Source: an uncultured virus (IMG/VR IMGVR_UViG_3300031420_000005) (lineage: Duplodnaviria; Heunggongvirae; Uroviricota; Caudoviricetes). Taken from it: 64,000 nt of DNA. Made by a program: the position numbers and the translations under genes. Shown here piece after piece: positions 24,412 to 63,530 of this stretch. The stretch lies in the IMG/VR virus record IMGVR_UViG_3300031420_000005; one strand, 5' to 3'. The notes under the pieces were generated by a model. The model was not told the origin of the DNA and ran no database searches. It saw only the letters and a list, made by a program, of their open reading frames with translations. Positions within the stretch are counted from its first letter, which is position 1. Every line of letters begins with the position of its first letter.

Positions 24412-25578
24412 ATGGCACAGAACAACAAGCTCAAGCGTCGGGCTCAGGCCTTCATGGCCGACCACGAGGGTGTGACCTACCTCAACGCCCTCAAGGCGGT
24501 CGATGAACCACTCCACGAGCTCCGGGATCTCGTCTTCGGAGTAGGGTCAGAATACAACTACGGCGGCGCTAGAGGGTTCCGGATCGTCCCTCGTCAGGGC
24601 AGCTACGGCTATGCATTCGGCGATCTCCCGTCTCACAGGGCAGTCGATGAGCTCGAGCTGACGCGATTCGCTTATCCTATGGTTTTCCTTGAGGAGCTCG
24701 TAGACCGCAAGCGGCTCATTCAGAATGCTGGAGTGAGTCACATCTGGGCGTACCGGGAGCTCTACCGTGCTGGGCTGTTGGACAGTGGAGCAAGAGCCCT
24801 TGAGCCCCTCTTCCATCACTTCGATTCGATGATCGGGGAGAGCTATGGTCCTCTGAACAGCTTTGAGTCACACCTGGTGGGGATCTACTCAGTCAATGTT
24901 TCTGACTTCCTCGGTATCTTTGATCGCGGCAACAGCATTCCCGCTACGAAGCTTCAGCTCGAACAGCTCCTGGCGGGGAAGCCAGCAGGAGAGTTCGAAA
25001 CCCTCCCTCAGATCACTGCCGATGGTATTCCAGCCCGTGACTGGACAGACAGCTACGATCTTCTTGCAGTGTCTGGGCAGGCCGATTCCTACGAAAAACC
25101 CAAGCTTTCGATCTTCTTCAAGGGCACTGAGGAGGAGCTGCACAGGGAGCTCGAAGCTAGAGATCTAGACTCCTCCAGGTTCAGAGTCAGGGACATCTCG
25201 ATGCAGGAAGTAGATTTCCACGGGTTTGCCACCTGGATTCAGGCAAAGCTTGCTGACAATACTCTGGTCCATGGCACCACCGAAGAGGTTCTTCTCTGGG
25301 GCACGCAGTCGCCCGCTAAACCCACCATCCTGGAGGTAGCCGAGGGCATCGGCCTGAAGTTCGAGCGCAACGGGGACGGGAGCTTCGTCCTCGACTCGGA
25401 GGGCAAGATCTCCACGGCCTGTCCCTTCCACGAGGATACGGACAGCTTCATCCTGCTCCCCGATCAGGGTGAGCACGGTTTCTTCATGTGCTACAGCTGT
25501 GGCCGCAACGGTAGCCCCGAAAGACTGAGATTGAACTGGGAGAACCCCAACATCCTCGATGAAATAGCTGCAAGCTAG
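24412..25578 (+). CDS. N-terminal basic-tag protein with C-terminal CHC2 (primase-type) zinc finger
   Basis: Start MAQNNKLKRRAQ; CPFHED...FMCYSCG. Confidence 0.8.
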   Translation: MAQNNKLKRRAQAFMADHEGVTYLNALKAVDEPLHELRDLVFGVGSEYNYGGARGFRIVPRQGSYGYAFGDLPSHRAVDELELTRFAYPMVFLEELVDRKRLIQNAGVSHIWAYRELYRAGLLDSGARALEPLFHHFDSMIGESYGPLNSFESHLVGIYSVNVSDFLGIFDRGNSIPATKLQLEQLLAGKPAGEFETLPQITADGIPARDWTDSYDLLAVSGQADSYEKPKLSIFFKGTEEELHRELEARDLDSSRFRVRDISMQEVDFHGFATWIQAKLADNTLVHGTTEEVLLWGTQSPAKPTILEVAEGIGLKFERNGDGSFVLDSEGKISTACPFHEDTDSFILLPDQGEHGFFMCYSCGRNGSPERLRLNWENPNILDEIAAS

Positions 25579-25640
25579 GATCTCAACTAATCTGACCTCA
25601 AGCCCGGTTGTGGAACTGTCTCCACTGTGATAGCATTGCC

Positions 25641-25836
25641 ATGAGCCCAGCGGATTGGGCTCCTGGATCGGACTCCCTGCGCGGGTTCCCCCACAGTCCA
25701 GACAGCTATTCGATGGCGGCCGCTTCTTCACCGTAGGACCCTCTGAACACAGTTCTGCCCACCATGGGCTACAATCGATCAACAGTGGACTCCGGTAGGC
25801 GCAGGCTAGTGGACTCCACGAGATTGGTCTATTCCC
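25641..25836 (+). ncRNA. Structured kissing-loop leader RNA, copy B
   Basis: After TGaTAGCAT; GAGCCCA/TGGGCTC hairpin; CCTGCGC 25676-82 complementary to GCGCAGG 25799-805 inside a GTGGA/TCCAC stem. Confidence 0.75.
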
Positions 25837-27222
25837 ATGGCAACAGTCAACAAGGCACTGAAGAAGCGAGCACAGGCCTTCGCCGAGGAGCACGAGCTCC
25901 CCTATCTCAAGGCGCTCAAGGCCGTCGATGAGCCCCTCCACCAGCTCCGAGATCTCACGGATCCTGAGGAGCTCAAGCGACTGGGCTACCACCCTCACTT
26001 CCGGCTCATCGATGAGAAGGAGAGAGAGCGCGCCGATCCGAAGTCCGCCTACGCCGAGCTCATCGCAGCGAAGTTCCCTGCGGTGAATGCCCATGAGCAA
26101 GTCATCGTGGAGAAGGGACTTCCCCACTTCGCCACACTGGACAATCTCTACGGTGAATGTGGGACTAGGCTCGCCAGGCTTCACCGGGAGGGACTCACAG
26201 ACATCTGGAGCTACAGAGAGCTTCATAGGGCCGGGCTCCTCGGTCCGGAGGCTCAGCCCATGGAGCCGGTTTTCCACTACTTCGGCTGGCATCTCAATCA
26301 GAGCGGAGACTCCGCACTTCCCGGAGAGGGGAAGCTCGGGATCTTCTGTGTGAGCATCGCGGAGGGTCGCTTTCGGGGGACCGGGGGCCTCATCCCTGTT
26401 ACAGAGACTCAGCTCGGGGCACTGAAGTCAGGTGAGTCTATGGAGCGTATCGAGCTGACTCCGCTATCCGAGGCTGGAGCCTTCTACAGGCTGCAGGAAG
26501 CCCATGAGGCACAGACAGCGAAAGAGGAGAAGCAAACCGCTGACCGGGAAAGGGTCAACTACTTCGTAGATCTCATCGACAACTTCCTCGAAGGAATGGA
26601 TCGAAGTGAGCGATCCTCCCTTCGCTCTGTGATTCAAGATCTAGTTTCCCAGGGTGAAGTCACCATAGAGGCCATCGTGACTGAACTTCGAAGTGCTCAG
26701 AGCTCCACCGCTCGGAAACTGGGCACTCGAATCATCCGTGCCACGGGAATCTCAGTAACTGGTACGACCGCTCGGGAAACAGCCGGGCGAGGATCAGCTG
26801 TGGACATTCTGAACGCTCTGGGACTAGATGATGATGAGCTTCGCAGTGCGCGGGAGGAGGTGGCGCTTGAGAAAGCGCGAGAGTCCATGGTGCAATCCAT
26901 GAACTCCCTGTGCTCGACGCTGATATCCAACTTCGACATGCGCTTCGAGGAGAACCGCAAGCTCATTCGGGACTTCGCACTGGGAGAGCTCGACGAGAAC
27001 GGTGGCGCTAACTTCCTCGCGGGGGTCATTCGTACTCTGAGGAGCAGTGACTCTCCCGACGCTAGGTGCATCGGCGCAAGGCTCATCGACGGCCTTGCAA
27101 CTCTGGACGATGCAGACGAAGAGACTTCAGATGAAGTCCACACGCTCATCTCGTCCATGCAGAAAACGGCTACTCGCATCGATGAGATGAGTGGAACTAT
27201 CTCTGTCGTGTACCCCTACTAG
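25837..27222 (+). CDS. N-terminal basic-tag protein, paralog of 24412 and 28771, with helical C-terminal repeats
   Basis: MATVNKALKKRAQ...ALKAVDEPLH; IWSYRELHRAGLL...EPVFHYF. Confidence 0.8.
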   Translation: MATVNKALKKRAQAFAEEHELPYLKALKAVDEPLHQLRDLTDPEELKRLGYHPHFRLIDEKERERADPKSAYAELIAAKFPAVNAHEQVIVEKGLPHFATLDNLYGECGTRLARLHREGLTDIWSYRELHRAGLLGPEAQPMEPVFHYFGWHLNQSGDSALPGEGKLGIFCVSIAEGRFRGTGGLIPVTETQLGALKSGESMERIELTPLSEAGAFYRLQEAHEAQTAKEEKQTADRERVNYFVDLIDNFLEGMDRSERSSLRSVIQDLVSQGEVTIEAIVTELRSAQSSTARKLGTRIIRATGISVTGTTARETAGRGSAVDILNALGLDDDELRSAREEVALEKARESMVQSMNSLCSTLISNFDMRFEENRKLIRDFALGELDENGGANFLAGVIRTLRSSDSPDARCIGARLIDGLATLDDADEETSDEVHTLISSMQKTATRIDEMSGTISVVYPY

Positions 27223-27231
27223 AACAGCGTT

Positions 27232-27278
27232 GATCTCTGGCCGGACAATGCCTCCACGGTACTGTCCGGCCAGAGATC
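27232..27278. repeat. 16-bp perfect inverted repeat (terminator-like or binding site)
   Basis: GATCTCTGGCCGGACA-N15-TGTCCGGCCAGAGATC. Confidence 0.75.
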
Positions 27279-27341
27279 TGTGGTTGGCAGCGAGCTTCCC
27301 GCGGCCTCGCCTCCGTTAGAGATCTGGAGGAAGGAGATCCC

Positions 27342-28427
27342 ATGGCGAAGTTCCACATCAACAAGGCAGGTAACCCCGGTTCCTGTCAAGCCAAGCCTGG
27401 GAACTGTCCCTACGGCAGCGAGCGCGACCACTACAGCAGCAAGGAAGATGCCCGGGAGATCTACGAGGCTCAACAAGAGCTCCTTGCGCAGATCGGCGTC
27501 GGTGGAAAGCATCCTCTGAGCTCCGCCACCGAGACTGCCCTCACTGCGGATCTTCAGCCCCTGGATCAGCAGCCTGCATGGATCTGGGAACACTCATCCA
27601 GGCTCCAGCAGGAGCTCTTCGGTGTGACTCCCCAGGTCATCGCCACCGTGGACAGTCCCCTGGGGCCACTGGCCGTGGTCTGGGAGGAGGCCACCGTGGA
27701 GCCCAACGATCTCGTCTCTGAGGTCGAGGATGGCTACCTGATCTCCCGGATCTCCTACCGGACCATGGCCACCGGTGAGCTCGTGGGTTACCTAAAGACT
27801 ACCTCCATGTCTGAGGAGTCAGTGGCCAAGAGCTTCGGGAACGACGAGTGGCGAGGGCTGCGCTACTCTCGAACCCGGGAGTCCTTCTATCCCATGGATC
27901 GGGAACATGTGCAGGGTCAGCGGGACTACGATCCCCACCAGAGCGCAGAGGACTTCGAGCGTTCCCGGGTAGAGCCTCCGAAGCTTGATAGCAAGGAGAA
28001 GCTCGTAGAGTTCGTGGGCAAGGCCCAGAGTCACTTCCGATCCTACAGCGATACCACTCCTCACTTCATGGATGAGCCGGAGCTCCGCAGTGAGCTCAGC
28101 AGGCTTCAGGAACTCGCCAATGAGAACCTCGATCACTACCGGGAGAGCTTCGAGGAGCCCTTCATCGATTACATCAAGCTCGACCGGGAAGAGCTTCGCG
28201 GCCAGGGACTGGGAGCCTCCCTCTATGTGTTCATGGCGAGGAAGCAGGCTGAGCGTGGACTGCCTCTGCGCGCATCGGGTCTACAGACTCCCGAGGCTGA
28301 GACGAGCTGGCGTACCATGGCTGCTGACACTCGCTTCCCGATTCGGGTAGCCAACAGCCTCTACCGGGATCGGAACAACCGGAAGGTCAGCGCGAGCTTC
28401 TTCCTCGACTTCCGGAACCAAGACTGA
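27342..28427 (+). CDS. N-terminal His/Cys knuckle with C-terminal GNAT-like acetyltransferase
   Basis: FHIN..G.PG.C.A..GNCPYG...HY; LRGQGLGASLY acetyl-CoA motif A. Confidence 0.65.
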   Translation: MAKFHINKAGNPGSCQAKPGNCPYGSERDHYSSKEDAREIYEAQQELLAQIGVGGKHPLSSATETALTADLQPLDQQPAWIWEHSSRLQQELFGVTPQVIATVDSPLGPLAVVWEEATVEPNDLVSEVEDGYLISRISYRTMATGELVGYLKTTSMSEESVAKSFGNDEWRGLRYSRTRESFYPMDREHVQGQRDYDPHQSAEDFERSRVEPPKLDSKEKLVEFVGKAQSHFRSYSDTTPHFMDEPELRSELSRLQELANENLDHYRESFEEPFIDYIKLDREELRGQGLGASLYVFMARKQAERGLPLRASGLQTPEAETSWRTMAADTRFPIRVANSLYRDRNNRKVSASFFLDFRNQD

Positions 28428-28592
28428 CGAGGCTAGGATCGGCCGACAGCTATTCGCAGCTGCCCGGCTAAGGCGCTGACTCCCTGGAACCGATCAACCC
28501 GACGAGCCCGGCGGCTTCGGCGCTCAGAGCGCAGCCTACTGTTGCTGGAGTGGTGTCTGTTGTGCATCCGGAGAATCCGTGATAGGATCTAG

Positions 28593-28770
28593 GTGAGCTC
28601 GCGGTTCGGGCTCCCGGTTTCAGGCTCCCTGCGCGGGTCTGGATGGATCCGGATAGCCCATTGGATGGGCGGCCGACTTGCTCACATTCAGCACTGCCTC
28701 CTTCCCGGGAGGGCTTAGAAGCTAGTGGAGTGGCCAGCGCAGGTCGTCGTTCCACGGAAGTAGCTCAGCC
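28593..28770 (+). ncRNA. Structured kissing-loop leader RNA, copy C
   Basis: After TGaTAGGAT; GAGCTCG/CGGGCTC; CCTGCGC 28628-34 complementary to GCGCAGG 28737-43 inside a GTGGA/TCCAC stem. Confidence 0.75.
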
Positions 28771-30186
28771 ATGGGAAAGATCAGCACCAACACCAACCTC
28801 AAGCGCCGGATCCGCGAGTTCCAGGCTCAGCACGGCGTCTCTCACTCCACCGCCCTCAGGGCCGTGGATGAACCCCTCCACATGCTCCGGGATCTCAGCC
28901 GGCTTCCTCAGTCGATGGCTACTCCGGATCTCAATGAGGCTCGCTTCCGGCTCGTCGGCGACCAGAGTCGCTTCGCTCGATTCCATCAGGAATACTCTGA
29001 GTCCGGAGCTCGCTACATCCGAGACATCTTCGCTCGGTATCAGAGCATGAACTCTCCCAAAGGGCTCCTTCGACTCATCTCCCGGCGCTTTGAGCTCATC
29101 GAGCTCGTAGGAGCGACCGACTTCTGGGGGCTTAGAGAGATTATCCGCGGTGGGGTTGTACTCGTTCCCGAACTCAACGGGGAACCATCCTTCTTCAGCC
29201 CGCCCTTTGCAGCTGAGGATAGGAAGAGACTTCTTGAGCCAGTCTTCTACTTCCACGAGGGGCCACTCGATTCCCGAGTAGCTCATTACCTCAGCGAAGG
29301 CGAGGGGGCTCGACTCGGTATCTTCCCCCTCAACATGCAGGGCATCCTCGAGCTCAACGACCCGGGGGAAGCTGCGGCTATCCCCGTCACTTTCGAAGAA
29401 TCCGGTGGTCTTCTCGACGGGTCGCTCAGGCACAGGCCTCGCTTCCTTCAGCGCTTCAGCCAGAAGCCGGGGTGGACGGTCGAGCAGCGAAGCTACTCGG
29501 TGTTGGCTGAGATCAAAAAGAACTGGGGCGAATCTCAGGTCCGCGTGTTCTTCGGAAACCCCGCTGAGACCATCGAGTCGGCTAAGCTTCGGCTTCAGTC
29601 CATGGGTCTAGATCCCCTGGGCTTCGAACTTCGAGACATTCGCAGAGAACAGCTCACGCTCAACTACGCTGCAGACAGGTTGGAGATTTCTGGCTGGCAG
29701 GACGGTCACTCGATCTCCATGCGGACTGAGCGCACCATCGAACTCGACGGAGAGCTTGCTGCACGGGCCTATCAGGACAACCACCGCGAAGTCGAGGCCC
29801 GACAGGCAGCTGGTTTGAGAGCCCTCGAGGAGCTCGCGGGAATCGCCCACGGCTCTTCAGATGCTAAGGTGCTGCAGTCAATCAGGGAGACCGTCAATCT
29901 CAGGAGCTACTTTGACTTCGTGGGGATCACCACCTACGAGGAGAGGGAAGAGAATGAGTTCACCGTGAGTGCTGACTGTCCCTTCGAGGGCGCCTCCCGT
30001 AGGCTCATCATCAGCCCTGACGGCGGGCACTTCAAGTGCTTCGGCTGTGGAGCGGCCGGAGACCTAGTGAGCCTCGTACAGAGACTCAAGAGGCTCAACT
30101 ACCGAGACGCTGTGAACTACCTCGCGGGTTTTGAGATCACCGAGGGAAGACTCACGAGGCGCAGCTCTCGGGCGCCCAGGATCTGA
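28771..30186 (+). CDS. N-terminal basic-tag protein with C-terminal DnaG-type zinc-binding domain
   Basis: NTNLKRRIRE...ALRAVDEPLH; CPFEG...FKCFGCGAAGDLVSLV...NYRDAV. Confidence 0.8.
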   Translation: MGKISTNTNLKRRIREFQAQHGVSHSTALRAVDEPLHMLRDLSRLPQSMATPDLNEARFRLVGDQSRFARFHQEYSESGARYIRDIFARYQSMNSPKGLLRLISRRFELIELVGATDFWGLREIIRGGVVLVPELNGEPSFFSPPFAAEDRKRLLEPVFYFHEGPLDSRVAHYLSEGEGARLGIFPLNMQGILELNDPGEAAAIPVTFEESGGLLDGSLRHRPRFLQRFSQKPGWTVEQRSYSVLAEIKKNWGESQVRVFFGNPAETIESAKLRLQSMGLDPLGFELRDIRREQLTLNYAADRLEISGWQDGHSISMRTERTIELDGELAARAYQDNHREVEARQAAGLRALEELAGIAHGSSDAKVLQSIRETVNLRSYFDFVGITTYEEREENEFTVSADCPFEGASRRLIISPDGGHFKCFGCGAAGDLVSLVQRLKRLNYRDAVNYLAGFEITEGRLTRRSSRAPRI

Positions 30187-30309: not shown

Positions 30310-30603
30310 ATGAGCATGGCTGAAATGCTTGCCCACCTGTCCGTAGTTGAGAACCCCGGATACCACCTCCGGCACATCCCCAAAGGGGAGCTCGGCGAGC
30401 TCTCCAAGGTCTACGAGGAGATCCTCGAGGCCCTGGATGCAGACGCCCAAGGCGCGTCAGTGATGACCCTCGTAGAGCTCTCCGATCTGCTCGGTGCGCT
30501 AAAGGCCTTCCTGGCCAAGCACCATCCCTCCATCGGTCTCTCCGACCTCGAGGCCTTCTCCTCGATCACCAAGAGAGCCTTCGCTTCCGGAAGGAGGGGC
30601 TGA
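30310..30603 (+). CDS. small all-alpha NTP pyrophosphohydrolase (MazG-like)
   Basis: KVYEEILE...VELSDLLGA fits the EExxE...ExxD pattern. Confidence 0.55.
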   Translation: MSMAEMLAHLSVVENPGYHLRHIPKGELGELSKVYEEILEALDADAQGASVMTLVELSDLLGALKAFLAKHHPSIGLSDLEAFSSITKRAFASGRRG

Positions 30604-30605
30604 CC

Positions 30606-31343
30606 ATGGAGACACCACTGAACTCAGAGCTGTCTCCAGGGCTGCAGACGGATCCTCCCGCGGTGGAGGCCTTCAACGGTGGCCGAAGCCGGGAGCGGGA
30701 GCTCACTCCGGGACTCTCGGACGAGCTCCTCGCTCCGCCGGGCCGAGGAGAGGCCGGACCTCGAGACTACAGGCGGAGGCTGAGCTTCGACTTCTCCATC
30801 ATCGCCCATGCCCAGCAGCACTACGCCGAGCGAGGCTACGAGGACATCCCCGTGCCCTGGGTGATCTCCCGGCAGGCCATGGACTCCACGCTCCCTGCTG
30901 ACAAGGTGCCCTACGAGACCTTCGGAGGCTACCTCGTGGGATCGGCCGAGCAGTCTTTCATCGAGCTCCTCCTCTCGGGTGAGATCCTGGGCCGGGTGCA
31001 GGCCACCACGCCCTGCTTCCGGGATGAGACCCACGATGGGCTCCACAGCCCCTACTTCCTGAAGACCGAGCTCTTTGACAGCACCCTTCCCATGACAGAG
31101 GAGAGTGTGCTCGCGGTCGCAGATGATGCGGGCAGATTCTTCGAGCACTATGTGCCCGTGGAGCTCGAGCGCCAGGGGCCGCTGGCCTGGGATCTAGTCC
31201 ACGCTGAGACCGGAGTGGAGGTCGGATCCTACGGAGTTCGAGAGGTTGCGGGTCACTCCTGGATCTACGGCACGGGAGTCGCCCTGCCGAGGCTCCAGCA
31301 GACCATGGACTCCACCCACGGGCGCTGGAGCGCCACGGACTGA
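30606..31343 (+). CDS. stand-alone class II aminoacyl-tRNA synthetase-like catalytic domain
   Basis: Motif 1 GYEDIPVP, GSAEQ, motif 2 TPCFRDE..YFLKTEL, EVGSYG, motif 3 GTGVALPRL; no tRNA-binding domain. Confidence 0.75.
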   Translation: METPLNSELSPGLQTDPPAVEAFNGGRSRERELTPGLSDELLAPPGRGEAGPRDYRRRLSFDFSIIAHAQQHYAERGYEDIPVPWVISRQAMDSTLPADKVPYETFGGYLVGSAEQSFIELLLSGEILGRVQATTPCFRDETHDGLHSPYFLKTELFDSTLPMTEESVLAVADDAGRFFEHYVPVELERQGPLAWDLVHAETGVEVGSYGVREVAGHSWIYGTGVALPRLQQTMDSTHGRWSATD

Positions 31344-31784
31344 TTCTGAAGTTGCAATGCGAGCGTATGGCTTGATAAGAGGTCAAATGCGCTACTTGCG
31401 CTAATTACCTAAGGAGTCAATATGTCACTACTCTACATCCACAGAGGAAACGACGATCTTACCCTGCTGAATAGAGAAGCTATTTTCTCTATGGAAGTTA
31501 CCTCTGATAAGAACAGGCCGAAGAAGCCGAACAATCGCGGTAAAAATGATCCTTATACAGTCTTGCTTAAATGTAATGGAAGTGAGTTTCGTTTTTCGAT
31601 TAGACCAAATAAGAAGGTTGTTGAGAACTCTAAAGGTAAGCTAGGAGGTGTTGAGGTGATGGGAGTAGAAGCAGTGGAGGCTGTTATTCGATCACTGTAC
31701 CTCTGGTTTGAAGTCGATACAGAAGTGAATGTCTATATGAACAACGAAGGCACTGTCTCAAGTGTCTCATACGCCACGGACTGA
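31331..31784. mobile_element. AT-rich single-gene insertion bounded by a 13-bp direct repeat
   Basis: CGCCACGGACTGA at 31331-43 and 31772-84; two sampled 60-nt lines are 33% and 40% GC. Confidence 0.65.
31422..31784 (+). CDS. hypothetical protein with foreign AT-rich codon usage
   Basis: SD AAGGAG, 120 aa. Confidence 0.7.
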   Translation: MSLLYIHRGNDDLTLLNREAIFSMEVTSDKNRPKKPNNRGKNDPYTVLLKCNGSEFRFSIRPNKKVVENSKGKLGGVEVMGVEAVEAVIRSLYLWFEVDTEVNVYMNNEGTVSSVSYATD

Positions 31785-32483: not shown

Positions 32484-33107
32484 GTGAGCTTCAACTTCCC
32501 CACCGTCGGCGAGCTCGTACAGAGCTATGTGGCCAACGGCCAGGGCGCGATTCCGCCTCGAGGCAAGGGTAGAAGAACCAGCACCATCGGCAGGGACTGG
32601 CTCGGAGCAGAGCTCAAGCCCGGCGACACCGTGCTCAGCTCTGCGGGCGCCCAGTCGAACTTCTTCCGGGTCAGCAATATCTTCCTCGACGACTCCGTTG
32701 GGCCGATCCGCGCGGACCTGGGAAACTACTTCTTCATTCCCGAAGGTAGCGACGAGCTCTATGCTTACAAGCCTGGCCACTGGGTAAAGGACGACAAGCA
32801 CTACCTACAGCAAGTCAACCCCGACTGGAGGCCCGGCTACCTCGGCCTCATCGACGGCGAGGGAGCCTTCAGGAGAGACTACCCGCAGCTTCAGCCAGTG
32901 AGCTTCCAGGGCATGGCGATCCAGGTCAAGCCCCTGGACGGAGTCGGAAAGGCTCGATCCCTGAAGCAGGAGCAGATCACGGTCATGGGCGCCCATGTGC
33001 TCGATCCCCAGTCGATCCTCGAGCTCCGGGCTGCTCAGACCATCGAGCTCACAGACAGGGTCCTCGTGCTCAAGCAAGCCTCCAACGGAAAGGCCTACAT
33101 CCTATGA
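32484..33107 (+). CDS. hypothetical protein, family S2
   Basis: FPT...RRTSTIGRDWLG...GD; VNPDWR..YLGLI; PVSFQG; TTGACA promoter at 32377. Confidence 0.75.
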   Translation: MSFNFPTVGELVQSYVANGQGAIPPRGKGRRTSTIGRDWLGAELKPGDTVLSSAGAQSNFFRVSNIFLDDSVGPIRADLGNYFFIPEGSDELYAYKPGHWVKDDKHYLQQVNPDWRPGYLGLIDGEGAFRRDYPQLQPVSFQGMAIQVKPLDGVGKARSLKQEQITVMGAHVLDPQSILELRAAQTIELTDRVLVLKQASNGKAYIL

Positions 33108-33778
33108 ACACTCGTGGCATCTTTGGGCAGCCGACGATCTCCTGGCGAGATCTCCCCAATCCTCTGAACATCCCCACCATCCGGGAACAGCTTCAGCACA
33201 TCGCGCCTCCGCTCTCTGGTAAGCGCCCCGGCGGAGGCGGCAAGAACCGGCTCACCGTTCCCGTGGGTCGAGACGGACTCGGCGTGGGCTTCGAGGTCGG
33301 AGACACCGTGCTCCTCGGTCAGCGCTACCGGCCGATCATCGCTGAGGTCGAGGGGATCTACGCTGAGGACTCTTCGGGCAACCGCTACTACGAGCCCCAG
33401 GATCTTCTCTACAGTGACGCCAAGGGAAACGATCTCTTCACCTACCGCTATGTCTACGGAGCTCCCAACAACCGGATCTTTAGCCGAGTCGATCCCGAGT
33501 GGAGGGGCGTTCGAGTCGGCCTCATCACCGAGGATCTTCAGCGCTACCTTCCGGCGCCTGGCTTCAGGCGCTCCGCCTCCTCCATCGCCCTCAAGGCCAT
33601 CGATGACGGATTCCTCCCCGTCGCCTTCCAGGGGATCAAGGTCAAGATCAAGCTCCTCCAGGACAGCCGCAGTAAGTTCGTGGGCCAGGATCAGCTCACC
33701 GTACTCGGAGATCATCTCACCGACGGGAGCCTCCTCCAGGCCTACCAGGAAGCTCTGCAGCCGCCCCTGGCCCCATAG
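33104..33778 (+). CDS. hypothetical protein, family S2
   Basis: VGRDGLG..FEVGD; VDPEWRG..VGLI; PVAFQG. Confidence 0.75.
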   Translation: MNTRGIFGQPTISWRDLPNPLNIPTIREQLQHIAPPLSGKRPGGGGKNRLTVPVGRDGLGVGFEVGDTVLLGQRYRPIIAEVEGIYAEDSSGNRYYEPQDLLYSDAKGNDLFTYRYVYGAPNNRIFSRVDPEWRGVRVGLITEDLQRYLPAPGFRRSASSIALKAIDDGFLPVAFQGIKVKIKLLQDSRSKFVGQDQLTVLGDHLTDGSLLQAYQEALQPPLAP

Positions 33779-33835
33779 ACCCTAGCTCCAGCAGCATTTT
33801 AGCAGCAACTTCAGCTTCGAGAAAGCGACAGCACC

Positions 33836-34492
33836 ATGAACAGCACAGGATCCGGCATTCAGCAGCCCTGGCAGGAGCTCCCGAAGCTCCTCCAGTTCCC
33901 CTCCCTGAGCGAACTCACGAGTCAGCCCATCTACCAGGCTCCTCAGCGAGGTTCGGGTGGTCAGCGAGCTAGGAGGAGGACATCCTCCATCGGCCGGGAT
34001 CGGCTCGGCCGGGCATTCCGCCAGGGCGATCAGCTCCAGGGCATCGTCGGAGGGAGCCTGGAGTTCGTGGAGGTGGACGAGATCTTCCTCGACGACACCG
34101 AGGGTCAGCCCTATGGCTCAGTTGGCTACTGGCACTGGCTCTTCCTCCTCCACCGGGCGAGCGGTGAGCTCTTCAAGGAGAGCCGCGGCCCCAACAACCA
34201 GTCGGTACTCGTGCCCCTGGACATGGACTGGCGGGGAACCCACCTGGGCCTCATCGAGGCAGTTAGCCTTCCCTCCTATGTAACCGTCCCCAACGGTTTC
34301 ACTCCCGTCAAGTTCCAGGATTTCAAGGTGCGCTGCGTTCCCCTGGAGTCGGGCAACGCTCGGAAGCTCACCCTGGACCCTGACAATCTCTCGGTGCTCG
34401 AAGCTCCCCTCCCCATCAGGGATCTGCAGCTCTACCGGGAGGCTCGCCAGCTGCCCCTGGATCAGGGTCGAGCCTTTCCCACTCCCAAGTGA
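33836..34492 (+). CDS. hypothetical protein, family S2
   Basis: RRTSSIGRDRLG; LDMDWRGTHLGLI; PVKFQ. Confidence 0.75.
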   Translation: MNSTGSGIQQPWQELPKLLQFPSLSELTSQPIYQAPQRGSGGQRARRRTSSIGRDRLGRAFRQGDQLQGIVGGSLEFVEVDEIFLDDTEGQPYGSVGYWHWLFLLHRASGELFKESRGPNNQSVLVPLDMDWRGTHLGLIEAVSLPSYVTVPNGFTPVKFQDFKVRCVPLESGNARKLTLDPDNLSVLEAPLPIRDLQLYREARQLPLDQGRAFPTPK

Positions 34493-34543: not shown

Positions 34544-35632
34544 ATGCCCAGCAGCACCGAGCATCCCCTCCGCATCTGGTTCAACCGGCCCTTCGCCACG
34601 AGCTACTGGCTCTTCGACATGCTCCGGGACAATCCAGACGGCTACCCCGTCAAGATCTATGTGACTCAGACCGATCCCACCTCTCCGGTGTTCCAGGGAG
34701 CCGACTACGGAGAGCTCGAGCCCGACCTTCAGGGCGAGGCCTATGTGGACTGGGCCCTGGACTTCTGTGAGCGCCACGGCATCGAGCTCTTCTTCCCTCG
34801 CAAGTGGATCGAGATCCTCGTGGAGGCAGAGGAGCGCTTCGCAGCCCTCGGCGTGAGGCTCATCGCCTCTTCCCCGGAGGCTATTCGACTCTTCGAAGAC
34901 AAGAACCTGACCTACCGGGCAGCTACTGAGACTGGAGTCGCTGTGCCGCCCTGGTGCGTGGCCTCGGATGGGGAGAGCTTCGAGCGAGAGCTTCAGTCCC
35001 TGCGAGCAGAGCTCGAGGCTCAGGACCGCATCGTGGTGAAGCCCACCGTGGGCGTGGGCGCCCAGGGCTTCCGGATCCTCGACGAGAAGCCTCGCACCAT
35101 CAACGGGATCCTCGAGGGTGGGCTGCGAGTGAGCCCAGAGGAGCTCCTTCGTGGCTACGAGCGAGCGGAGGCCGCCGATGAGGCCCTCCCCGAGCTCATG
35201 CTCCTTCCCTACCTGGATGAACCTGAGCTCAGCGTGGACTGCCTCAGTAGCCCTCAGGGCGAGCTCCTGAAGACCATTCCCCGAGCCAAGCTCTCGGGTC
35301 GTCAGCGGCTCTTCACCGACGAGTACCCGGAGGCGGTGGAGCTCGTGGAGAGGCTCTACGCTGGCAGGGATCTGCGCTACATCACCAACACGCAGCTCCG
35401 CTGGTGGCGCGGTAGGCTCGTCCTCCTCGAGACCAACACTCGACCTGCCGGTGGGCTCTACGCTACTTCTCTCACGGGCGTCAACCTGATCTGGGATGCG
35501 GTCGCTCTAGCGCTCCGCGGAGAGGCCACGCCGAAGCAGCCTCGCCTCGGTGACTCCTATGTGGCGCTTGAGTCCTTCACGGAGCTCAAGGCCACTCCTC
35601 AGCCCGCCCAATACCCTGGAGCCATCCGATGA
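34544..35632 (+). CDS. ATP-grasp ligase (resembles the Ter-associated type)
   Basis: IWFNR N-terminus, EDK, VVKPTVGVGAQGF, ELSVD, LLETNTRPAGG. Confidence 0.8.
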   Translation: MPSSTEHPLRIWFNRPFATSYWLFDMLRDNPDGYPVKIYVTQTDPTSPVFQGADYGELEPDLQGEAYVDWALDFCERHGIELFFPRKWIEILVEAEERFAALGVRLIASSPEAIRLFEDKNLTYRAATETGVAVPPWCVASDGESFERELQSLRAELEAQDRIVVKPTVGVGAQGFRILDEKPRTINGILEGGLRVSPEELLRGYERAEAADEALPELMLLPYLDEPELSVDCLSSPQGELLKTIPRAKLSGRQRLFTDEYPEAVELVERLYAGRDLRYITNTQLRWWRGRLVLLETNTRPAGGLYATSLTGVNLIWDAVALALRGEATPKQPRLGDSYVALESFTELKATPQPAQYPGAIR

Positions 35633-37710: not shown

Positions 37711-37854
37711 TGGCGCTGATCCACCGCGGAGCGACAGTAGCTGCCCGCCTGAGCAGCCGGAAGGCAATCCTGCGGTCATCGTGTGGGCAGCTCTTCAGCG
37801 GGGCTCAGGCGGACACTGAGCGAAGTTCGGAGCTGCGCTTTGATAGAGTGGTTC

Positions 37855-37999
37855 CACGCCAGCTTCCCGTGGCTCACCTGAGACTCCCGTCCCCGCGCGA
37901 TTGGAGACCCTCTAGGAAGGTGCTTAGCATCCGGGATCTTTCAGCTAGAGCGTGTCTCACTCTCTTTCGACCGGCGCGGGTAGTCTAAGGAGATTCCTC
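37855..37999 (+). ncRNA. Structured kissing-loop leader RNA, copy D (divergent)
   Basis: After TGaTAGAGT; loop CCCGCGC 37892-98 in a CTCC/GGAG stem complementary to GCGCGGG 37974-80 in a TCTCTTT/AAGGAGA stem that covers the SD. Confidence 0.6.
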
Positions 38000-39795: not shown

Positions 39796-39970
39796 GGAGC
39801 TATGCTACCGAGGGTGGTCCCGAATCAGCGGTTCGATCGGCAGAAAGTTCGAAGGCTTCGACGCTCTAGCCTGTCGACCGTTGCAAGGAGAGCGAAGTTC
39901 ATGTACAGTGGTGCTGACAGTTCTCAACAGCAGATCGGCGTCCATTAGCGCCGGGGCGAAGGATTCCACC

Positions 39971-41624: not shown

Positions 41625-41674
41625 CAGCGACTCACTGAAACATTTATACAGCATTCTAGAATTGGACATATGAA

Positions 41675-42169: not shown

Positions 42170-42171
42170 GC

Positions 42172-52554: not shown

Positions 52555-53397
52555 ATGACTACTTCAGCCTACGGCGCCCATCTCTCGGGCGGCAAGGATC
52601 TTCGACCATCGGCCGTCACCGCAGCCCGCATGGGCTTCGAGGCCTTCCAGGTCTTCCTCCACGGTCCCACGAGCAGTAGGATGCCCACGGGCACAGAAGA
52701 GTTCGACGGGCTCTTCAGGGATGCGGTGGAGCTCCTCAATGCCCGGGTCTTCGTCCACGGACCCTATCTCATGAACTTCGGCTCTGCCCGGGAAGAGGTG
52801 CGCTCGAGCTCGGTGGAGATGCTTCGCCGCAACCTCGACCGGGCCGCCACCATCGGCGCCGAGGGCGTGGTGTTCCACGGAGGATCGAGCACGGGTGCCT
52901 CCCGGCTCGAGGGCCTACGGAGGCTCCACAACAGCCTCATGCCCCTCCTCGACTCCCTTCCCGAAGATGGCCCTCAGGTCATCCTGGAGCCCACGGCCGG
53001 CCAGGGCGACAGCCTGGCCTCATCTGTGGACAGCATCAGCGACTATCTCCTCTCGACGCTCAACGGCCATCCCAAGCTCTCCCTGTGCCTTGACACCTGC
53101 CACCTTCTGGCTGCCGGAGAGCCCCTGGACGAGGAAGACGGCGTGGATCAGCTCCTGGAGAAGTTGAAGTCCCACGGGCTCTGGGATAGGGTGCTCCTGT
53201 TCCATGCCAACGACTCAGCCTTCGAGCGCGGATCCCACCGGGATCGCCACGCCAACCTGGGCTACGGCCACGCCCACCCCGAGACCTGGAATCGGCTCAT
53301 GGACACCGGTGTTCCACTGATCCTAGAGACTCCGGGAGAGCACTTCCAGTCTGACATCAGCATCCTGCAGGGGCTGCACGAGAGCAAGGAGAACTAA
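52555..53397 (+). CDS. nfo: endonuclease IV (AP endonuclease family 2)
   Basis: GAH, VHGPYLMN, VFHGGS, LEPTAG, LDTCH, HANDS, DRHANLG, LETP. Confidence 0.92.
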   Translation: MTTSAYGAHLSGGKDLRPSAVTAARMGFEAFQVFLHGPTSSRMPTGTEEFDGLFRDAVELLNARVFVHGPYLMNFGSAREEVRSSSVEMLRRNLDRAATIGAEGVVFHGGSSTGASRLEGLRRLHNSLMPLLDSLPEDGPQVILEPTAGQGDSLASSVDSISDYLLSTLNGHPKLSLCLDTCHLLAAGEPLDEEDGVDQLLEKLKSHGLWDRVLLFHANDSAFERGSHRDRHANLGYGHAHPETWNRLMDTGVPLILETPGEHFQSDISILQGLHESKEN

Positions 53398-54361: not shown

Positions 54362-54736
54362 ATGCTCGGCTTCAGCCTCACGATCAGTGAGCTCAAGGCA
54401 CAGCCCACTCGAAGGCTCCATCGCATCATCGAGGACGCAGCTGACCACAGGGAGATTCCTGGGATCATCCGCTACGAGCTCCAGGGTCAGCAGGTCAGCT
54501 ACATCGAGAAGATCACGCCCTGGTGGTGCGCTGGCAAGCTCATAGAGCTCGTGGAGGACCACCGGATCAACGGAGCCATCATGCTCTACCGGGGAGGATA
54601 CCCCTTCCTCTTCACAGTGCGAGGTCGAGACATCATCGACTCCATTGTCAATGTGGAGGGTAGCCGCCACACTGACCTGGTCCATGTGCTCCAGCCCGAG
54701 ACCATGTACCTTCTCGAAGCCTGGGATCAGAGCTGA
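54362..54736 (+). CDS. hypothetical protein
   Basis: SD AAGGA. Confidence 0.7.
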   Translation: MLGFSLTISELKAQPTRRLHRIIEDAADHREIPGIIRYELQGQQVSYIEKITPWWCAGKLIELVEDHRINGAIMLYRGGYPFLFTVRGRDIIDSIVNVEGSRHTDLVHVLQPETMYLLEAWDQS

Positions 54737-54794
54737 TCGCAGCCTTCCACCATTCATAGCCAACCAGCCTCCGAGGCTGAGAACGGAGCCTCCC

Positions 54795-55781
54795 ATGGCC
54801 TTCTCCATCGACCCAGCACTGCGCTTCTCCCCCGTGGTGGCCTTCGATGTGGACGGTGTGCTCCGAGTGCGAAAGATTCCGGAGCGCCGAGGATCCGCAA
54901 TCATCGAGCAGGGTGGGCTCATCGATCTGGAGATCACCCTGGAGCAGGAGGAGTATCCCTCCATCTACCACGGGCAGCCCAAGTGGGACGAGCGCGGCAA
55001 GAGCACCCGCATCGAGAGCTTCTCTCAGGCGGCAGTGGAGCTCATCCGCAGCCTGGCTGAAGATCCTCGCGCTGAGCCCGTCTACGCCACCACCTGGCAG
55101 CGCTGGGCCAACTACTACTTCAACTCGGCCCTGGATCTTCCGGAGCTCCCCGTGGCCGTCGAGACCCTGGATCCGCCGGAGCTCAACTACGCCCACTGCT
55201 CTCCCGCCTGGAAGACCGCCCAGCTCGCTCGACAGTTCGACGGTAGGCCTCTGCTCTGGATCGATGACAACATGCCGGACCGGGACAGCGAGGATCTCGC
55301 GAGCCTGAGAAGGCCCATCGACCGGGGAATCACCCGGAGCTTCCAGGTCAGCCCCTGGACTGGGATAACCCCAGAGGACATCGGGAAGATCATGGACTGG
55401 GTGGAGCTTGCGAGCACCCCAGAGGGCCAGAAGAAGCTCCGAGCACAGCGCCAGGCTCAGGTCAGCTACGAGCGCCAGCAGCTGGCCAAGTTCCTACGAC
55501 AGCGAGATCGAGAGCGTCAGGCCTTTGAGACCGTTCGGGATCGCACCCTGGAGCTCTACCCGGAGTACGGCAAGCGCTTCGCCACGGCCATCGGGAGTAT
55601 CGGCCAGAGCAAGCGTGGGCTCTCGGTGACCAATGTGACTCGGCTCCTTCAGCGCCATCCCTATGTGCCGATGGATCCAGCTGAGCTCGCCGCCAGCCTG
55701 CGGATTCCTCGCTACCACCTCCGGGATCTCAACGAGGCGGAAGATCGGGATGCTGGCTTCGACGAGCGCTACGACTTCTAG
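54795..55781 (+). CDS. HAD-family phosphatase (resembles the RNA-repair HAD_SAK type)
   Basis: AFDVDGVL, ATTW, WK, LLWIDD. Confidence 0.75.
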   Translation: MAFSIDPALRFSPVVAFDVDGVLRVRKIPERRGSAIIEQGGLIDLEITLEQEEYPSIYHGQPKWDERGKSTRIESFSQAAVELIRSLAEDPRAEPVYATTWQRWANYYFNSALDLPELPVAVETLDPPELNYAHCSPAWKTAQLARQFDGRPLLWIDDNMPDRDSEDLASLRRPIDRGITRSFQVSPWTGITPEDIGKIMDWVELASTPEGQKKLRAQRQAQVSYERQQLAKFLRQRDRERQAFETVRDRTLELYPEYGKRFATAIGSIGQSKRGLSVTNVTRLLQRHPYVPMDPAELAASLRIPRYHLRDLNEAEDRDAGFDERYDF

Positions 55782-55964: not shown

Positions 55965-56993
55965 ATGGCCAAGAAGCCAAAGCGCGGAAGCTACCTCAAT
56001 CTCGAGGATGTGCGGGTCTTCTACGACGCGAAGTCGGACACAGTATCGCTCACTTCCGGCGGCAGGGATCTACCCGAAGCCGGTGGGCTGAAGATCGATC
56101 TCAGCCCCGGCACTCAGCCAGAGCGTCAGCTCCGAGAGCTCCTCAAGGTCAAGGGTGTGATTCGTGAGGATCTCTGGCCTCGAGTGACGCGAGGAGACAC
56201 CTTCGAGAGCATCGTGAGCTCACAGGAAGATCAGCTCCATCTCGGCACCAACATCAACGGTGAGTCCGTGGAGTGGAACCTCAACTCTTACCGAAACCTC
56301 TGGGTCCACGGGGCAACCGGTGGCGGCGCTTCTCTTCTCTCTCGAGCGGCTATTCAGCACGGATTCGTCCATGGCTGGGAGATCTTCGGCATCGATCCCC
56401 GTCGAGTAGAGCTCGAAGAGATCAGCAAGTACCCCGTGGGCAGAACAGTAGCCAAAGACACCCAGGAAGCACTGAACCTCCTCGACAGCATCAGCAGGCT
56501 TGCCGAGGAGCGCATCAGCTTCCTGGAGGGTCAGAATGTGTTGAGCACTCGAGACCTTCCCGGAGACCTGCAGCCACGCAAAGTGCTCCTCATCATCGAC
56601 TCAGTCGAGCTCCTCCTTGAGTCTGCCAGCCCCGATGATCAGGCAAAGCTTCTCGCGAGCCTCGAAAGGCTTAGCTGGCTAGGTAGGCCAGTGGGAGTTC
56701 ATGTGCTCCTGAGCTCCAAGTCTCAGCCTCGAGACCTCCAGCGCACTGACGCTGACGAGCTCAAGAAGATTCAGGCCTCCTGTGCCCACATCGTCTGCGG
56801 TAACTACTACCAGGATCGGCTTCCCGAAGGCCTGCGAGAGCGCTACAGGCCCAATCGAGGTCGAGGCATGGGTAGAGCTCAGTTCATTCTCGGTGGTCCA
56901 TCGATGGCTACGCTAGAGTTCCAGCTCGGTCTGGCTCTCGATGCGCCCAGAGAATTCATCGAGGCGCTGCGAGCCCACCGACGAGGCTACTGA
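55965..56993 (+). CDS. FtsK/HerA-like P-loop protein with degenerate Walker motifs
   Basis: LHLG, GATGGGAS (no Lys), IDPRRVEL, LIIDS, LGRPVGVH, GRGMGRA. Confidence 0.7.
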   Translation: MAKKPKRGSYLNLEDVRVFYDAKSDTVSLTSGGRDLPEAGGLKIDLSPGTQPERQLRELLKVKGVIREDLWPRVTRGDTFESIVSSQEDQLHLGTNINGESVEWNLNSYRNLWVHGATGGGASLLSRAAIQHGFVHGWEIFGIDPRRVELEEISKYPVGRTVAKDTQEALNLLDSISRLAEERISFLEGQNVLSTRDLPGDLQPRKVLLIIDSVELLLESASPDDQAKLLASLERLSWLGRPVGVHVLLSSKSQPRDLQRTDADELKKIQASCAHIVCGNYYQDRLPEGLRERYRPNRGRGMGRAQFILGGPSMATLEFQLGLALDAPREFIEALRAHRRGY

Positions 56994-58694: not shown

Positions 58695-58717
58695 AGATCG
58701 AAACGGGAAACCAGCTC

Positions 58718-61011: not shown

Positions 61012-61166
61012 GCTTCCCTAGGACGCCACCCGAAGGCTGTAGCTTCGATGCTCACGGCCTTCGGGCGGCCTCTTGTATCGATGCACGGTTGAGCTCATTC
61101 GAGGGCTTAGAACAGACTCTAGCGCCGGATCGATAGTGGGCCCCACGGTTCGGCCGACAGTGTACG

Positions 61167-61565: not shown

Positions 61566-61603
61566 CGGTTGCAGCCTGTATCCAGTCGGTGTACAGTTGA
61601 TCC

Positions 61604-61963: not shown

Positions 61964-61984
61964 GTAGCACCCCTACCCAGAGAC

Positions 61985-62031
61985 GGGGCTAGGAGCCGGA
62001 ATCTTCAGCGTTCCGACTCCTAGCCCCTTTT
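61985..62031 (+). terminator. Intrinsic terminator between convergent genes
   Basis: GGGGCTAGGAGCCGGAA...TTCCGACTCCTAGCCCC-TTTT. Confidence 0.75.
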
Positions 62032-62042
62032 AGCAGCTGTGC

Positions 62043-63530
62043 TCAGCCTCCAGCGTGGATACCCCTGAAGAGCTGCTCTCCGTTCCAGCGATGCTCGTCC
62101 CGGGACTTCCAGCAGAGCTCCATGTCCTCGTTGGGATGAGCGGGGTTGAGATCCCTCCAGAACCAGTCGTCCCGGGCAGTGAAGCTGTTGCGGAGATCCT
62201 CGGGGAAGCTCTCAAAGCGCTCGGTGACTTCGGGTTCGACCTCCTCGATCCAGAGTGCGAGGGCCTTCAGGCCCAGGTCCCCGTCCGTGGTTCCCTCGAT
62301 GAGCCAATTCTCTCCATCCTCGCCGAGGTCCCAGACCACGACCTCATCCAGGGTCTCGCGCTCCGGGAGGGTCACACCATCGGTCCAGCCCTTGAGCACG
62401 GCTGCAAGCTTCGGCTCCGTGGGCTCAGGAGCTCCAGTGCTGCTCCACCAGATGCGCCTGAAGATGCGCTCCAGCCGGTAGGCTTCCTGGGCAGCCTCAG
62501 CCACGAGCTCGGGGGTGACCAGGTGATCGTAGGTCACGGTCTGCCAGTAGGTCGGGTAGAGCTCGAAGAGCTCGGAGAGCTGAAGCTGACCGGCCCTGAT
62601 GGAGTTGGCCCAAATTCGGAGGATGGGATTACCCCAAGTGGGGTGCTCGACGAAGCGCATCCGAGAGAAACTCACGCCGATCTCATCCCTCTGGCCACTG
62701 GGACCTCTCCGGTGCTTTGCGAGGTTCAGGGAGAGGATGTCCTCATCTGACCTCTCGGTGGAGCGCCGGTGGAGGAGAAGCACCTGGTCGGCGTCCTGCT
62801 CAAGGGCACCGGTCCACCGGATGTCGCTGAGCTTCGGCGGATACTCTTCGCCGATGAATCGATTGAGCTGAACAGTCACCAGAACGGCCACACCGAGCTC
62901 CAGGGCCAGGAGCTTGAGATCCCGGGAAACGGCGGCGAACTTCTCCTGTCTAGACGCACCTGTGGCTTCGAGGGATGGCATGATGAGCTCGAAGTAGTCC
63001 ACGACGATGAGATCGAGGCCTCTCTCGCTACCGATGAGCTCCAGGGCACGGGCTCGGATGTGCGCTACGGTCTGGCGAGGATCGTCGTCCAGGGTGAGCG
63101 CGAGCTGGCTCAACGCCCAGCGCGCATCTCGAATGAGCCGGCCTGTGTAGGGATTGGTCTCTCTGGCTTCTTGCTTGACCTCGGGAATCGTCAGGGAGGT
63201 CTTCGAGGCGATCATCCGCGCAAGGAGCTCATCCGCACTCATTTCAAGGCTGGAGAAGAGCACGGACTTGCCAGCCTGGAGGGCGCCGAGGGTGCTCTGG
63301 ATAGCGAAGGCTGACTTGCCGTCTCCGGGGCGAGCGGCGATCAGGGACAGGCCACTGGGCGTCCACCCTCCGGTCCACTCGTCGAGCATGGAGAACCCGG
63401 TGGGGACACCGATGGGCTTTCGAACGAAGGCGGATCCCTCTGAGACCTCTCGGAGTGCGCGAGTGTAGCTTCCAGCTCCGGCTTCCTTGCGGCGCCGGGC
63501 TTCCAGCTTCTGTCGTCTGTTCTTGGTCAT
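62043..63530 (-). CDS. dnaB: DnaB-like SF4 helicase domain with N-terminal basic tag and extra C-terminal domain
   Basis: GVPTGF..LD, ARPGDGKS, SLEM, VDY, QLNR, SDIR..GALEQDAD; normal DnaB N-terminal domain absent. Confidence 0.85.
   Translation of the reverse strand: MTKNRRQKLEARRRKEAGAGSYTRALREVSEGSAFVRKPIGVPTGFSMLDEWTGGWTPSGLSLIAARPGDGKSAFAIQSTLGALQAGKSVLFSSLEMSADELLARMIASKTSLTIPEVKQEARETNPYTGRLIRDARWALSQLALTLDDDPRQTVAHIRARALELIGSERGLDLIVVDYFELIMPSLEATGASRQEKFAAVSRDLKLLALELGVAVLVTVQLNRFIGEEYPPKLSDIRWTGALEQDADQVLLLHRRSTERSDEDILSLNLAKHRRGPSGQRDEIGVSFSRMRFVEHPTWGNPILRIWANSIRAGQLQLSELFELYPTYWQTVTYDHLVTPELVAEAAQEAYRLERIFRRIWWSSTGAPEPTEPKLAAVLKGWTDGVTLPERETLDEVVVWDLGEDGENWLIEGTTDGDLGLKALALWIEEVEPEVTERFESFPEDLRNSFTARDDWFWRDLNPAHPNEDMELCWKSRDEHRWNGEQLFRGIHAGG

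Follow-up and report, generated by a model that had tools for sequence, protein, structure and literature searches.

Five tagged genes and the sequences before them

The sequence analyzed here is a stretch of 64,000 nucleotides (nt) from an uncultured Caudoviricetes virus (IMG/VR record IMGVR_UViG_3300031420_000005), which is referred to at its full length as the window. Five of its genes encode proteins that start with a similar short segment (the tag), and each of them is preceded by the same arrangement of elements: a TGnTAnnnT box, followed after 39-42 nt by a hairpin with a C-rich heptamer, and then a further hairpin with the exact complement of that heptamer (Table 1). The 3' heptamer ends 19-31 nt before the ATG at 5/5 loci, the 5' loop being complementary to a word 5' of the ribosome site. 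An initial annotation of this DNA had suggested that a promoter, an RNA and a tag travel together as one cassette in front of differing cargo. The N-terminal peptides that it quoted for the genes starting at 24412, 25837, 28771 and 38000 (plus strand) and at 63530 (minus strand) were read as quoted, and the TGnTAnnnT box was found at every one of the five tagged loci. These start positions are used below to designate the genes.

Table 1. Coordinates of the boxes, leader RNAs and tagged genes in the window.
Cassette	Feature	Coordinates	Strand	Description
1	Extended -10 box TGATAGGAT	24218..24226	+	Pattern search
1	Leader RNA 1	24232..24411	+	5' heptaloop CCTGCGC 24267-24273; 3' loop GCGCAGG 24378-24384; covariance model R1, 165 bits; stems covary; hairpin context in local fold
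1	Tagged gene 1, 388 aa	24412..25578	+	Tag (residues 1-42), alpha/beta domain, C-terminal primase-type CHC2 zinc ribbon
2	Extended -10 box TGATAGCAT	25628..25636	+	Pattern search
2	Leader RNA 2	25642..25836	+	Loops 25676-25682 and 25799-25805; R1, 112.5 bits
2	Tagged gene 2, 461 aa	25837..27222	+	Tag, shared N-terminal domain, helical C-terminus without zinc ribbon
3	Extended -10 box TGATAGGAT	28580..28588	+	Pattern search
3	Leader RNA 3	28594..28770	+	Loops 28628-28634 and 28737-28743; R1, 149.7 bits
3	Tagged gene 3, 471 aa	28771..30186	+	Tag, shared domain, CHC2 zinc ribbon
4	Extended -10 box TGATAGAGT	37841..37849	+	Pattern search
4	Leader RNA 4	37855..37999	+	5' loop CCCGCGC 37892-37898; 3' loop GCGCGGG 37974-37980; in the lower stem of the 3' hairpin UCUCUUU pairs with the AAGGAGA ribosome site; R1, 4.3 bits (no match); fold-energy z -0.69
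4	Tagged gene 4, 234 aa	38000..38704	+	DH-type tag with longer inter-helix loop, then small P-loop NTPase
5	Extended -10 box TGTTAGCAT	63683..63691	-	Pattern search
5	Leader RNA 5	63531..63677	-	5' loop CCCACGC 63634-63640; 3' loop GCGTGGG 63558-63564; minimum-energy fold pairs both elements, z -1.93; R1, 4.3 bits (no match)
5	Tagged gene 5, 495 aa	62043..63530	-	Tag in place of DnaB N-terminal domain, DnaB_C helicase core, C-terminal region without family match

The leaders are about 150-200 nt long and comprise a first hairpin, a second one with CCYRCGY or a close variant of it, and a third one with the complement; since the heptamer of the second hairpin is exactly complementary to that of the third, the two loops can kiss. 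The heptamer pairs in the window were CCUGCGC:GCGCAGG (three loci), CCCGCGC:GCGCGGG (one locus) and CCCACGC:GCGUGGG (one locus). When CCYRCGY was searched together with its exact reverse complement 40-170 nt downstream, six loci were obtained in the 64 kilobases (kb), five of them being the leaders, and 0/200 dinucleotide shuffles reached the observed number (mean of 1.2 counts over both strands, equivalent to ~0.6 loci). The sixth pair (2488/2574; 2488-2580), CCCGCGT and its exact complement 79 nt apart, straddles the start (2561) of a minus-strand gene of 247 amino acids (aa), does not lie ahead of a start codon, and was taken as a chance match. The bare TGnTAnnnT pattern was not enriched in the window (23 matches vs. 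28 expected), and a sixth TGATAGCAT box at 17043 (+), 24 nt 5' of an acidic 189-aa open reading frame (ORF; 17076-17645) that has neither two-loop leader nor tag, indicates that this promoter type is not exclusive to the cassette.

The conservation of these parts could be followed in the relatives of gene 24412 (the 24412 family). All 37 aligned leaders of the family retain the TGnTAnnnT box, its T, G, T, A and T being invariant, as well as CCTGCGCG and GCGCAGG. In the consensus structure obtained with RNAalifold from 27 of the 37 leaders, 12 of 28 base pairs showed double compensatory changes, and many were G-U pairs, which are strand-specific. In this alignment, as judged by eye, the only candidate start codon at the 5' end of the leader varies in its first base. 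The 24412-family leader is a real structured RNA. Among diverged leaders the loop pair itself occurred in eight variants, seven of them exactly complementary over 7 nt and one over 6 nt (CCCCAC:GUGGGG); those of 7 nt found outside the window were CCCACGU:ACGUGGG, CCCCCGC:GCGGGGG, CUCACGC:GCGUGAG and CCCACAU:AUGUGGG. Stems and loop pairs alike change in a compensating manner. Both elements were held in the apical part of a hairpin in 12/12 locally folded leaders, and the local folds of 38000, L023, L024, L029 and L030 show the ribosome site paired into the lower stem of the 3' hairpin. The 3' hairpin abuts this site, as does the structured RNA of an autogenous translational operator. That the two-loop leader represents a new RNA motif with natural compensatory variants is well supported, whether or not the tag domain reads the RNA.

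No match to Rfam 15, including C4 (RF01695) and 6C, was obtained at gathering score anywhere along the window; when positions 24100-28800 and ten plasmid loci were compared with a limit of E 1, solely unrelated sub-threshold rows were returned, leaders 4 and 5 having been compared at gathering level only. Models derived solely from leaders of the 24412 family, an nhmmer profile and the covariance model R1, recovered just three leaders in the window, and the best score of R1 on plasmid loci was 9.6 bits.

A conserved N-terminal domain

The consensus of the tag is M-T-x-N-x-x-L-K-K-a-a-R-x-y-x-x-x-H-G-v-s-Y-T-x-A-L-R-A-V, a basic and helical sequence that occupies the first 30-40 codons. A profile was built from 16 N-termini, all of them from outside the window and outside the 24412 family, and compared with the 1241 six-frame pieces of the window; the five genes were the top five (E-values of 1.8e-11 for 28771, 2.7e-8 for 25837, 1.8e-7 for 24412, 4.1e-5 for 63530 and 2.1 for 38000, the next piece having 3.9). 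The same five ranked first among 60 when single sequences were compared by hhalign together with 55 other predicted N-termini. In profile-profile comparisons, the tag of the 24412 family was matched with P 1.2e-21, the N-terminus of the DnaB-type protein with P 3.8e-9 (96%) and that of the 38000 family with P 6.9e-6 (84.5%), in the latter case from residue 1 and with a 10-residue insertion between the helices. The tag of 38000 is thus the weakest of the five, marginal by itself and without significance as a single sequence; its start, M-x-x-D-H-x-x-K-x-A-I-R-x-R, however, is common to two Streptomyces plasmid genes. The initial annotation had staked its proposal on the five N-termini forming a significant profile, and they do so, 38000 marginally.

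The AlphaFold model of the 24412 protein (predicted local distance difference test score, pLDDT, 89.4) places three helices in the tag, at residues 2-17, 23-30 and 35-41. Twelve positions were invariant across 35 distinct tags of the 24412 family. Conservation is much weaker beyond the first 40 residues, the whole proteins sharing 25-50% identity. Among pairs of tag-core codons encoding the same residue, 42% differed synonymously, which indicates that the constraint acts on the peptide and not on the RNA and that the similarity does not result from recent gene conversion; selection on the tag operates at the protein level. The pattern was repeated among the relatives of the DnaB-type protein (six) and of the P-loop protein (eight), in which the N-terminus is almost invariant and the remainder of the protein diverges.

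Against 1.84 billion representative proteins, the tag profile gave 74 matches, of which 38, at E up to 1e-10, correspond to the family. About 30 wider matches cover positions 1-29 only and belong to proteins of diverse lengths; many begin at residue 1, and in some (P0194-P0200) the tag occurs as two or three internal tandem copies. The likeness to a Glyoxalase_8-type hairpin suggested earlier was not borne out, as no Pfam family was obtained for the five tags (45-48 aa) even at E 10. Pfam likewise had nothing at the matched stretch of 34 wider tag proteins or in the tag region of four plasmid proteins, and NCBIfam had no match in the tag region of 12 proteins. None of the PDB sequences matched the tag profile below E 0.06 (the best, at E 0.068, was spurious), and the ESM Atlas gave no usable match for residues 1-45.

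Coupling of leader and tag on plasmids, and the cargo

Relatives of the tag were detected by tblastn on plasmids of Amycolatopsis, Streptomyces, Nonomuraea, Mycolicibacterium, Curtobacterium, Nocardiopsis and Mycobacterium. At seven of 11 plasmid loci the tag match coincides with the annotated start of a coding sequence (CDS) or lies no more than two codons from it, and at the Amycolatopsis locus it begins four codons into the CDS; the other three had no annotated CDS. Where neighbours were annotated, 200-400 nt of non-coding DNA lie upstream of the tag locus. The upstream regions of two plasmid genes showed the same plan as the window leaders, those of 38000 and 63530 included, in different letters. 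An exact 7-nt pair is present before eight of the 11 plasmid tag genes (CCCACGC in four of them, and CCCACGU, CCCCCGC, CUCACGC and CCCACAU in one each), and a ninth has the 6-nt pair CCCCAC. Between the beginning of the 3' element and the start codon there are 27-49 nt in the plasmids.

RNA and tag also co-occurred when they were searched separately. In the window, the five tag matches coincide with the five leader matches. With a descriptor requiring a C-Y-Y-N-C-R-Y loop closed by at least 3 base pairs (bp) and an exact partner 45-135 nt further on, a blind scan of two 50-kb plasmid stretches gave three descriptor sites and two tag matches, both of the latter at descriptor sites. Five whole plasmids (1.13 Mb) had one tag gene each (located by profile search in four, and by tblastn in the case of Nocardiopsis), and a loop pair lies directly upstream of all five. 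The three unrelated families in the window and eight of the 11 plasmid tag genes support the view of a single cassette in which promoter, RNA and tag travel together, and homologs of the tag mostly have the RNA, the opposite having been named by the initial annotation as what would count against it. On the Curtobacterium plasmid NZ_CP126255.1, several spaced copies of ACCCACG, which contain the heptamer, were seen within 84 bp (315697-315780) in an iteron-like arrangement.

Viral contigs contained no DNA related to the 24412 family or to the wider tag, and one truncated locus for the plasmid-type tag; species genomes yielded nothing for the 24412 family and four weak loci for the wider tag. 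In the phage collection there was no DNA match to the window and no phage match to one small tag protein.

The genes 24412, 25837 and 28771 are paralogs over ~230 aa, as the initial annotation had noted in part, so that the window holds three independent classes of cargo and not five. The 42 homologs of the 24412 family are all metagenomic, and in 18 metagenome loci the family genes form tandem arrays. On three contigs (L005 4802-12927, L002 1939-6818 and L006 4757-9485) four or five tagged family genes follow one another, each with its own promoter and leader, and some are short forms (~300 aa) without the zinc ribbon. In the window, the CHC2 zinc ribbon (PF01807) was found in 28771 (E 5.6e-10) and, just under the cut-off, in 24412 (E 3.8e-5). 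Residues 298-388 of the 24412 model matched the primase zinc-binding domain 1d0q_B (Z 8.5, root-mean-square deviation (rmsd) 5.6, 74 aligned residues), which was also the only match of the whole model in Foldseek (E 0.039). Beyond this ribbon, no Toprim or primase catalytic family of Pfam, PHROGs or NCBIfam was found in 24412 and 28771, and for residues 31-200 of the 24412 model there is a weak similarity to folds of the FtsK/EccC/TcpA/HerA type (Z 5.4-4.9, rmsd 4.3-7.1 over 125-141 aligned residues).

The 38000 protein gave only P-loop matches at the level of the Walker A motif, weakly TrbB/VirB11-like. The 63530 protein has a DnaB_C core (PF03796, E 7.4e-54, residues 41-280) and scored 186.8 bits with TIGR00665, below the cut-off of 385. 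The DnaB N-terminal domain (PF00772) is absent from this protein by Pfam search and from six close relatives by the precomputed Pfam list, more distant DnaB matches do carry it, and the tag occupies its place. A Mycobacterium plasmid protein consists of the tag and FtsK_SpoIIIE (Pfam E 3.3e-22) and has only the tag in common with the 24412 family. Overall, the cargo comprises the DnaB core, the small P-loop protein, FtsK/SpoIIIE, the zinc-ribbon family and proteins without family match, and the part of it that can be named consists mostly of P-loop ATPases of ring-translocase families.

As for its general composition, the window has a G+C content of ~60%, no tRNA was found in it, and few matches to Pfam or PHROGs were obtained; among them are an ATP-grasp protein, FtsK/SpoIIIE, a HAD domain of RNA-repair type and an ATPase resembling polynucleotide kinase. 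Overall, the window has the appearance of a large and mostly uncharacterised mobile element. The polynucleotide-kinase-like AAA_33 protein (39770-40630), an AP-endonuclease-2 TIM barrel (52555-53397), the HAD domain of 'Swiss Army Knife' RNA-repair type (54645-55781) and the FtsK/SpoIIIE ATPase (55965-56993), all on the plus strand, are possibly a nucleic-acid repair and transfer set of the element. Also on the plus strand, positions 30310-31343 hold a small ORF matching phrog_6408 (E 7e-32), followed by a 245-aa protein that resembles a fragment of a class II tRNA synthetase (phrog_4806 'histidyl tRNA synthetase', E 1e-30; PF00152, E 3e-5), and a 120-aa ORF at 31422-31784, with a G+C content at third codon positions of 0.44 vs. 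0.7-0.8 in neighbouring genes, may be a recent insertion. Three successive ORFs of 207-224 aa without family match (32484-34492, +), of which the second and third (33104 and 33836) have a similar N-terminal segment and look like paralogs, lie directly 5' of an ATP-grasp gene of Ter-operon type (34544-35632; PF15632, E 1.5e-25). Four tandem paralogs of ~160-170 aa (40627-42657, +), starting with MNYI or MNFI and each with a predicted membrane helix, gave no Pfam or PHROG match in the two of the four that were searched.

Interpretation of the cassette and its relation to known systems

The reading that we prefer, to which we give slightly less than an even chance, is that each of the five loci holds a copy of the same 5' cassette, present also on plasmids of cultured Actinomycetota, that its leader controls the initiation of translation and that its tag reads the RNA. 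The first of its three parts is an extended -10 promoter. The second is the leader RNA, in which the loop-loop contact would set translation by fixing the 3' hairpin at the ribosome site, either over it or next to it. The third is the N-terminal tag domain, which would be the protein that reads this leader. A cargo given such a cassette would become self-limiting, or would act preferentially on its own message and element. The analysis shows that the parts exist and are conserved, that stems and loop pairs change in compensation, that the leader strictly adjoins the ribosome site, that RNA and tag co-occur and that the tag is selected as a protein; a control of translation by the RNA, in one direction or the other, and its binding by the tag are inferred as the most likely mechanism. 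A more far-reaching version, which we advance tentatively and regard as clearly short of an even chance, is that of a portable RNA-peptide control module: a domain of ~30 aa and the two-loop leader of the message encoding it would form a self-contained unit, the nascent or finished domain binding the leader of its own message, perhaps before the latter has left the template, with the consequence that the fused ring ATPases would be self-limiting and preferentially cis-acting, and the letters of the heptamer would set orthogonal specificities within one element.

Several observations weigh against our preferred reading. Tags that occur as internal tandem copies cannot adjoin a leader, so the domain has an existence apart from the RNA. 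In two of the 11 plasmid tag genes (L028 and L031, of DH type like 38000), no exact 6- or 7-nt pair was present in the plausible transcript. Because R1 misses leaders 4 and 5, the kinship of these two with the others rests on architecture and not on alignable sequence, and the fold energies of single leaders were not unusual (z of -0.69, -1.93 and +1.04). The discriminating power of the loop pair also depends on how it is defined. A degenerate two-heptamer pattern without enforced complementarity was not enriched in the five whole plasmids (21 places vs. 21 for the control); on inspection of the individual places, exact complementarity was noted in 10, five of them directly upstream of the five tag genes and the other five away from tag genes, including two in the scanned Mycobacterium stretch that failed the hairpin descriptor. 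With a descriptor so loose that every GC-rich loop of 7 nt qualified, the window yielded 31 rows, and 25 of these lay away from the five leaders, and a partner-matched 7-nt loop with a closure of at least 3 bp was found 5' of 3/43 and 4/45 plasmid ORFs and of 7/77 window ORFs, the latter including three true sites, for an overall background of 7-9%. When any 7-mer with a complement in the last 60 nt is counted, a pair occurs 5' of approximately half of the genes, which leaves such a loose test powerless.

Some of these points suit an explanation by RNA alone, which we consider the main rival, if a rather doubtful one. The 5' hairpin would be a built-in antisense, acting in cis or, after processing as in P1 c4, in trans, and would gate translation at the loop next to the ribosome site; the heptamers would be non-cross-reacting specificities, and the tag, adjacent by common descent, would have another role, such as binding nucleic acids or partners of ring ATPases. 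Complementary loops with compensating changes require no protein, the three gene families of the window have three distinct heptamers, and the internal tag repeats lie away from any leader. A partner-binding role would also suit a cargo in which P-loop ATPases predominate among the identifiable members (DnaB_C, FtsK_SpoIIIE and the 38000 protein with its weak TrbB/VirB11-like matches). Such a mechanism leaves unexplained, however, why the RNA has so far been found only before tag genes, across very different cargo and hosts, and why a tag linked to a leader always begins with the first residue of its protein.

It is improbable that the elements act as DNA, with the inverted heptamers as an operator of the tag domain or as a cis-acting site for motor loading, and the hairpins as incidental palindromes. 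Two inverted copies of 7 bp at a distance of ~80-120 bp would also suit a dimeric DNA binder, whose co-evolving specificity would change both copies together, as is seen, and the identifiable cargo belongs to DNA-motor families. Yet the stems vary freely and keep pairing, many of their pairs are G-U and would be A-C mismatches on the other strand, and the elements have a fixed place on the sense strand, with the -10 box on one side and the ribosome site on the other. We find it still harder to credit that the tag serves in sorting, as a signal for transfer, secretion or the loading of particles, the leader merely timing or stabilising the message. A short, strictly N-terminal and highly conserved segment on unrelated cargo is what such a signal would look like, but the tag is a confidently modelled helical unit (in one model) that also occurs as internal repeats, the three window families have no cleavage motif in common, and Pfam and PHROGs identified no transporter or capsid genes nearby.

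Finally, a reading by paralogy plus chance, in which the combination of tag and leader is confined to the three paralogs and arose by coincidence in the P-loop and DnaB genes, was rejected as barely credible: it drew on a three-paralog profile that misses the others (DnaB E 37, P-loop not listed), a 44-member family profile that gives DnaB E 0.8 and has the P-loop protein outside its top rows, the three leaders found by nhmmer and R1, a probability of 5.9% when the profile of the family tag is compared with that of the P-loop N-terminus, and shuffle tests (3/5000 for DnaB and 152/5000 for the P-loop protein), and it is contradicted by the independent profile and hhalign values given above for both proteins, by the loop-pair motif that singles out these loci and by the recurrence of the coupling in six other genera, on their plasmids.

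Neither structured leaders that gate translation nor proteins that repress their own message are new in themselves. In the repZ/repA leaders of IncI-alpha, IncB and IncL/M plasmids, a hairpin loop forms a pseudoknot with the ribosome-site region, opposed by the Inc antisense RNA. The cassette resembles these leaders in that a 5' loop is complementary to a G/C-rich word near the ribosome site of a plasmid replication-protein gene, the contact deciding translation in those plasmids and, as proposed, here. It differs from them because their distal partner is not itself in a hairpin, their device includes an antisense RNA gene and a leader peptide, their hosts are enterobacterial and their unit is not known to include a conserved N-terminal domain of the product. 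In the immI c4-icd-ant system of P1/P7 (C4 RNA, RF01695), an RNA element at the 5' end of the transcript similarly pairs further down at a ribosome site; unlike it, the cassette matches no Rfam family at gathering score, and P1 is not known to have a tag-like coupling.

The leaders of T4 gene 32, gene 43 and regA and of ribosomal-protein genes offer another parallel, since in them a structured leader adjoins the ribosome site and is bound by the product itself, as is proposed for the cassette, the proteins regulated by the T4 operators being replication proteins. There, the whole protein binds and each operator serves one gene, whereas in the cassette a domain of ~30 aa and its RNA appear to move between unrelated genes. 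The PeSL cassettes of T4-type phages are likewise a repeated header of promoter and hairpin before different genes of a mobile genome; they are described as a recombination or shuffling header, while the present cassette spans distant genera, and to our knowledge PeSL has no loop-loop pair or shared protein domain. With regard to the tag, the N-terminal UBA-like domain of EF-Ts and the HeH, SAP and Rho_N domains resemble it in having, within ~30 residues, a basic helix that a turn with Gly connects to another, short one; three helices are predicted in the tag, and the tag region matches no Pfam or NCBIfam entry.

We know of no counterpart for an RNA leader coupled to a portable N-terminal domain. 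What is new is the joint inheritance, before unrelated genes, of a leader RNA that Rfam 15 does not contain and a domain that is in neither Pfam nor NCBIfam. No description of this RNA or tag was found in the full-text literature that was searched, including passages of PMC5737381, a result that does not imply that none exists.

Whether or not the RNA is read by the domain, the tag identifies a group of plasmid proteins for replication and transfer that await characterisation. If the domain does read it, the cassette would constitute a compact and transferable device for autoregulation, programmable through its heptamer, and would be a useful part for the engineering of actinomycetes.

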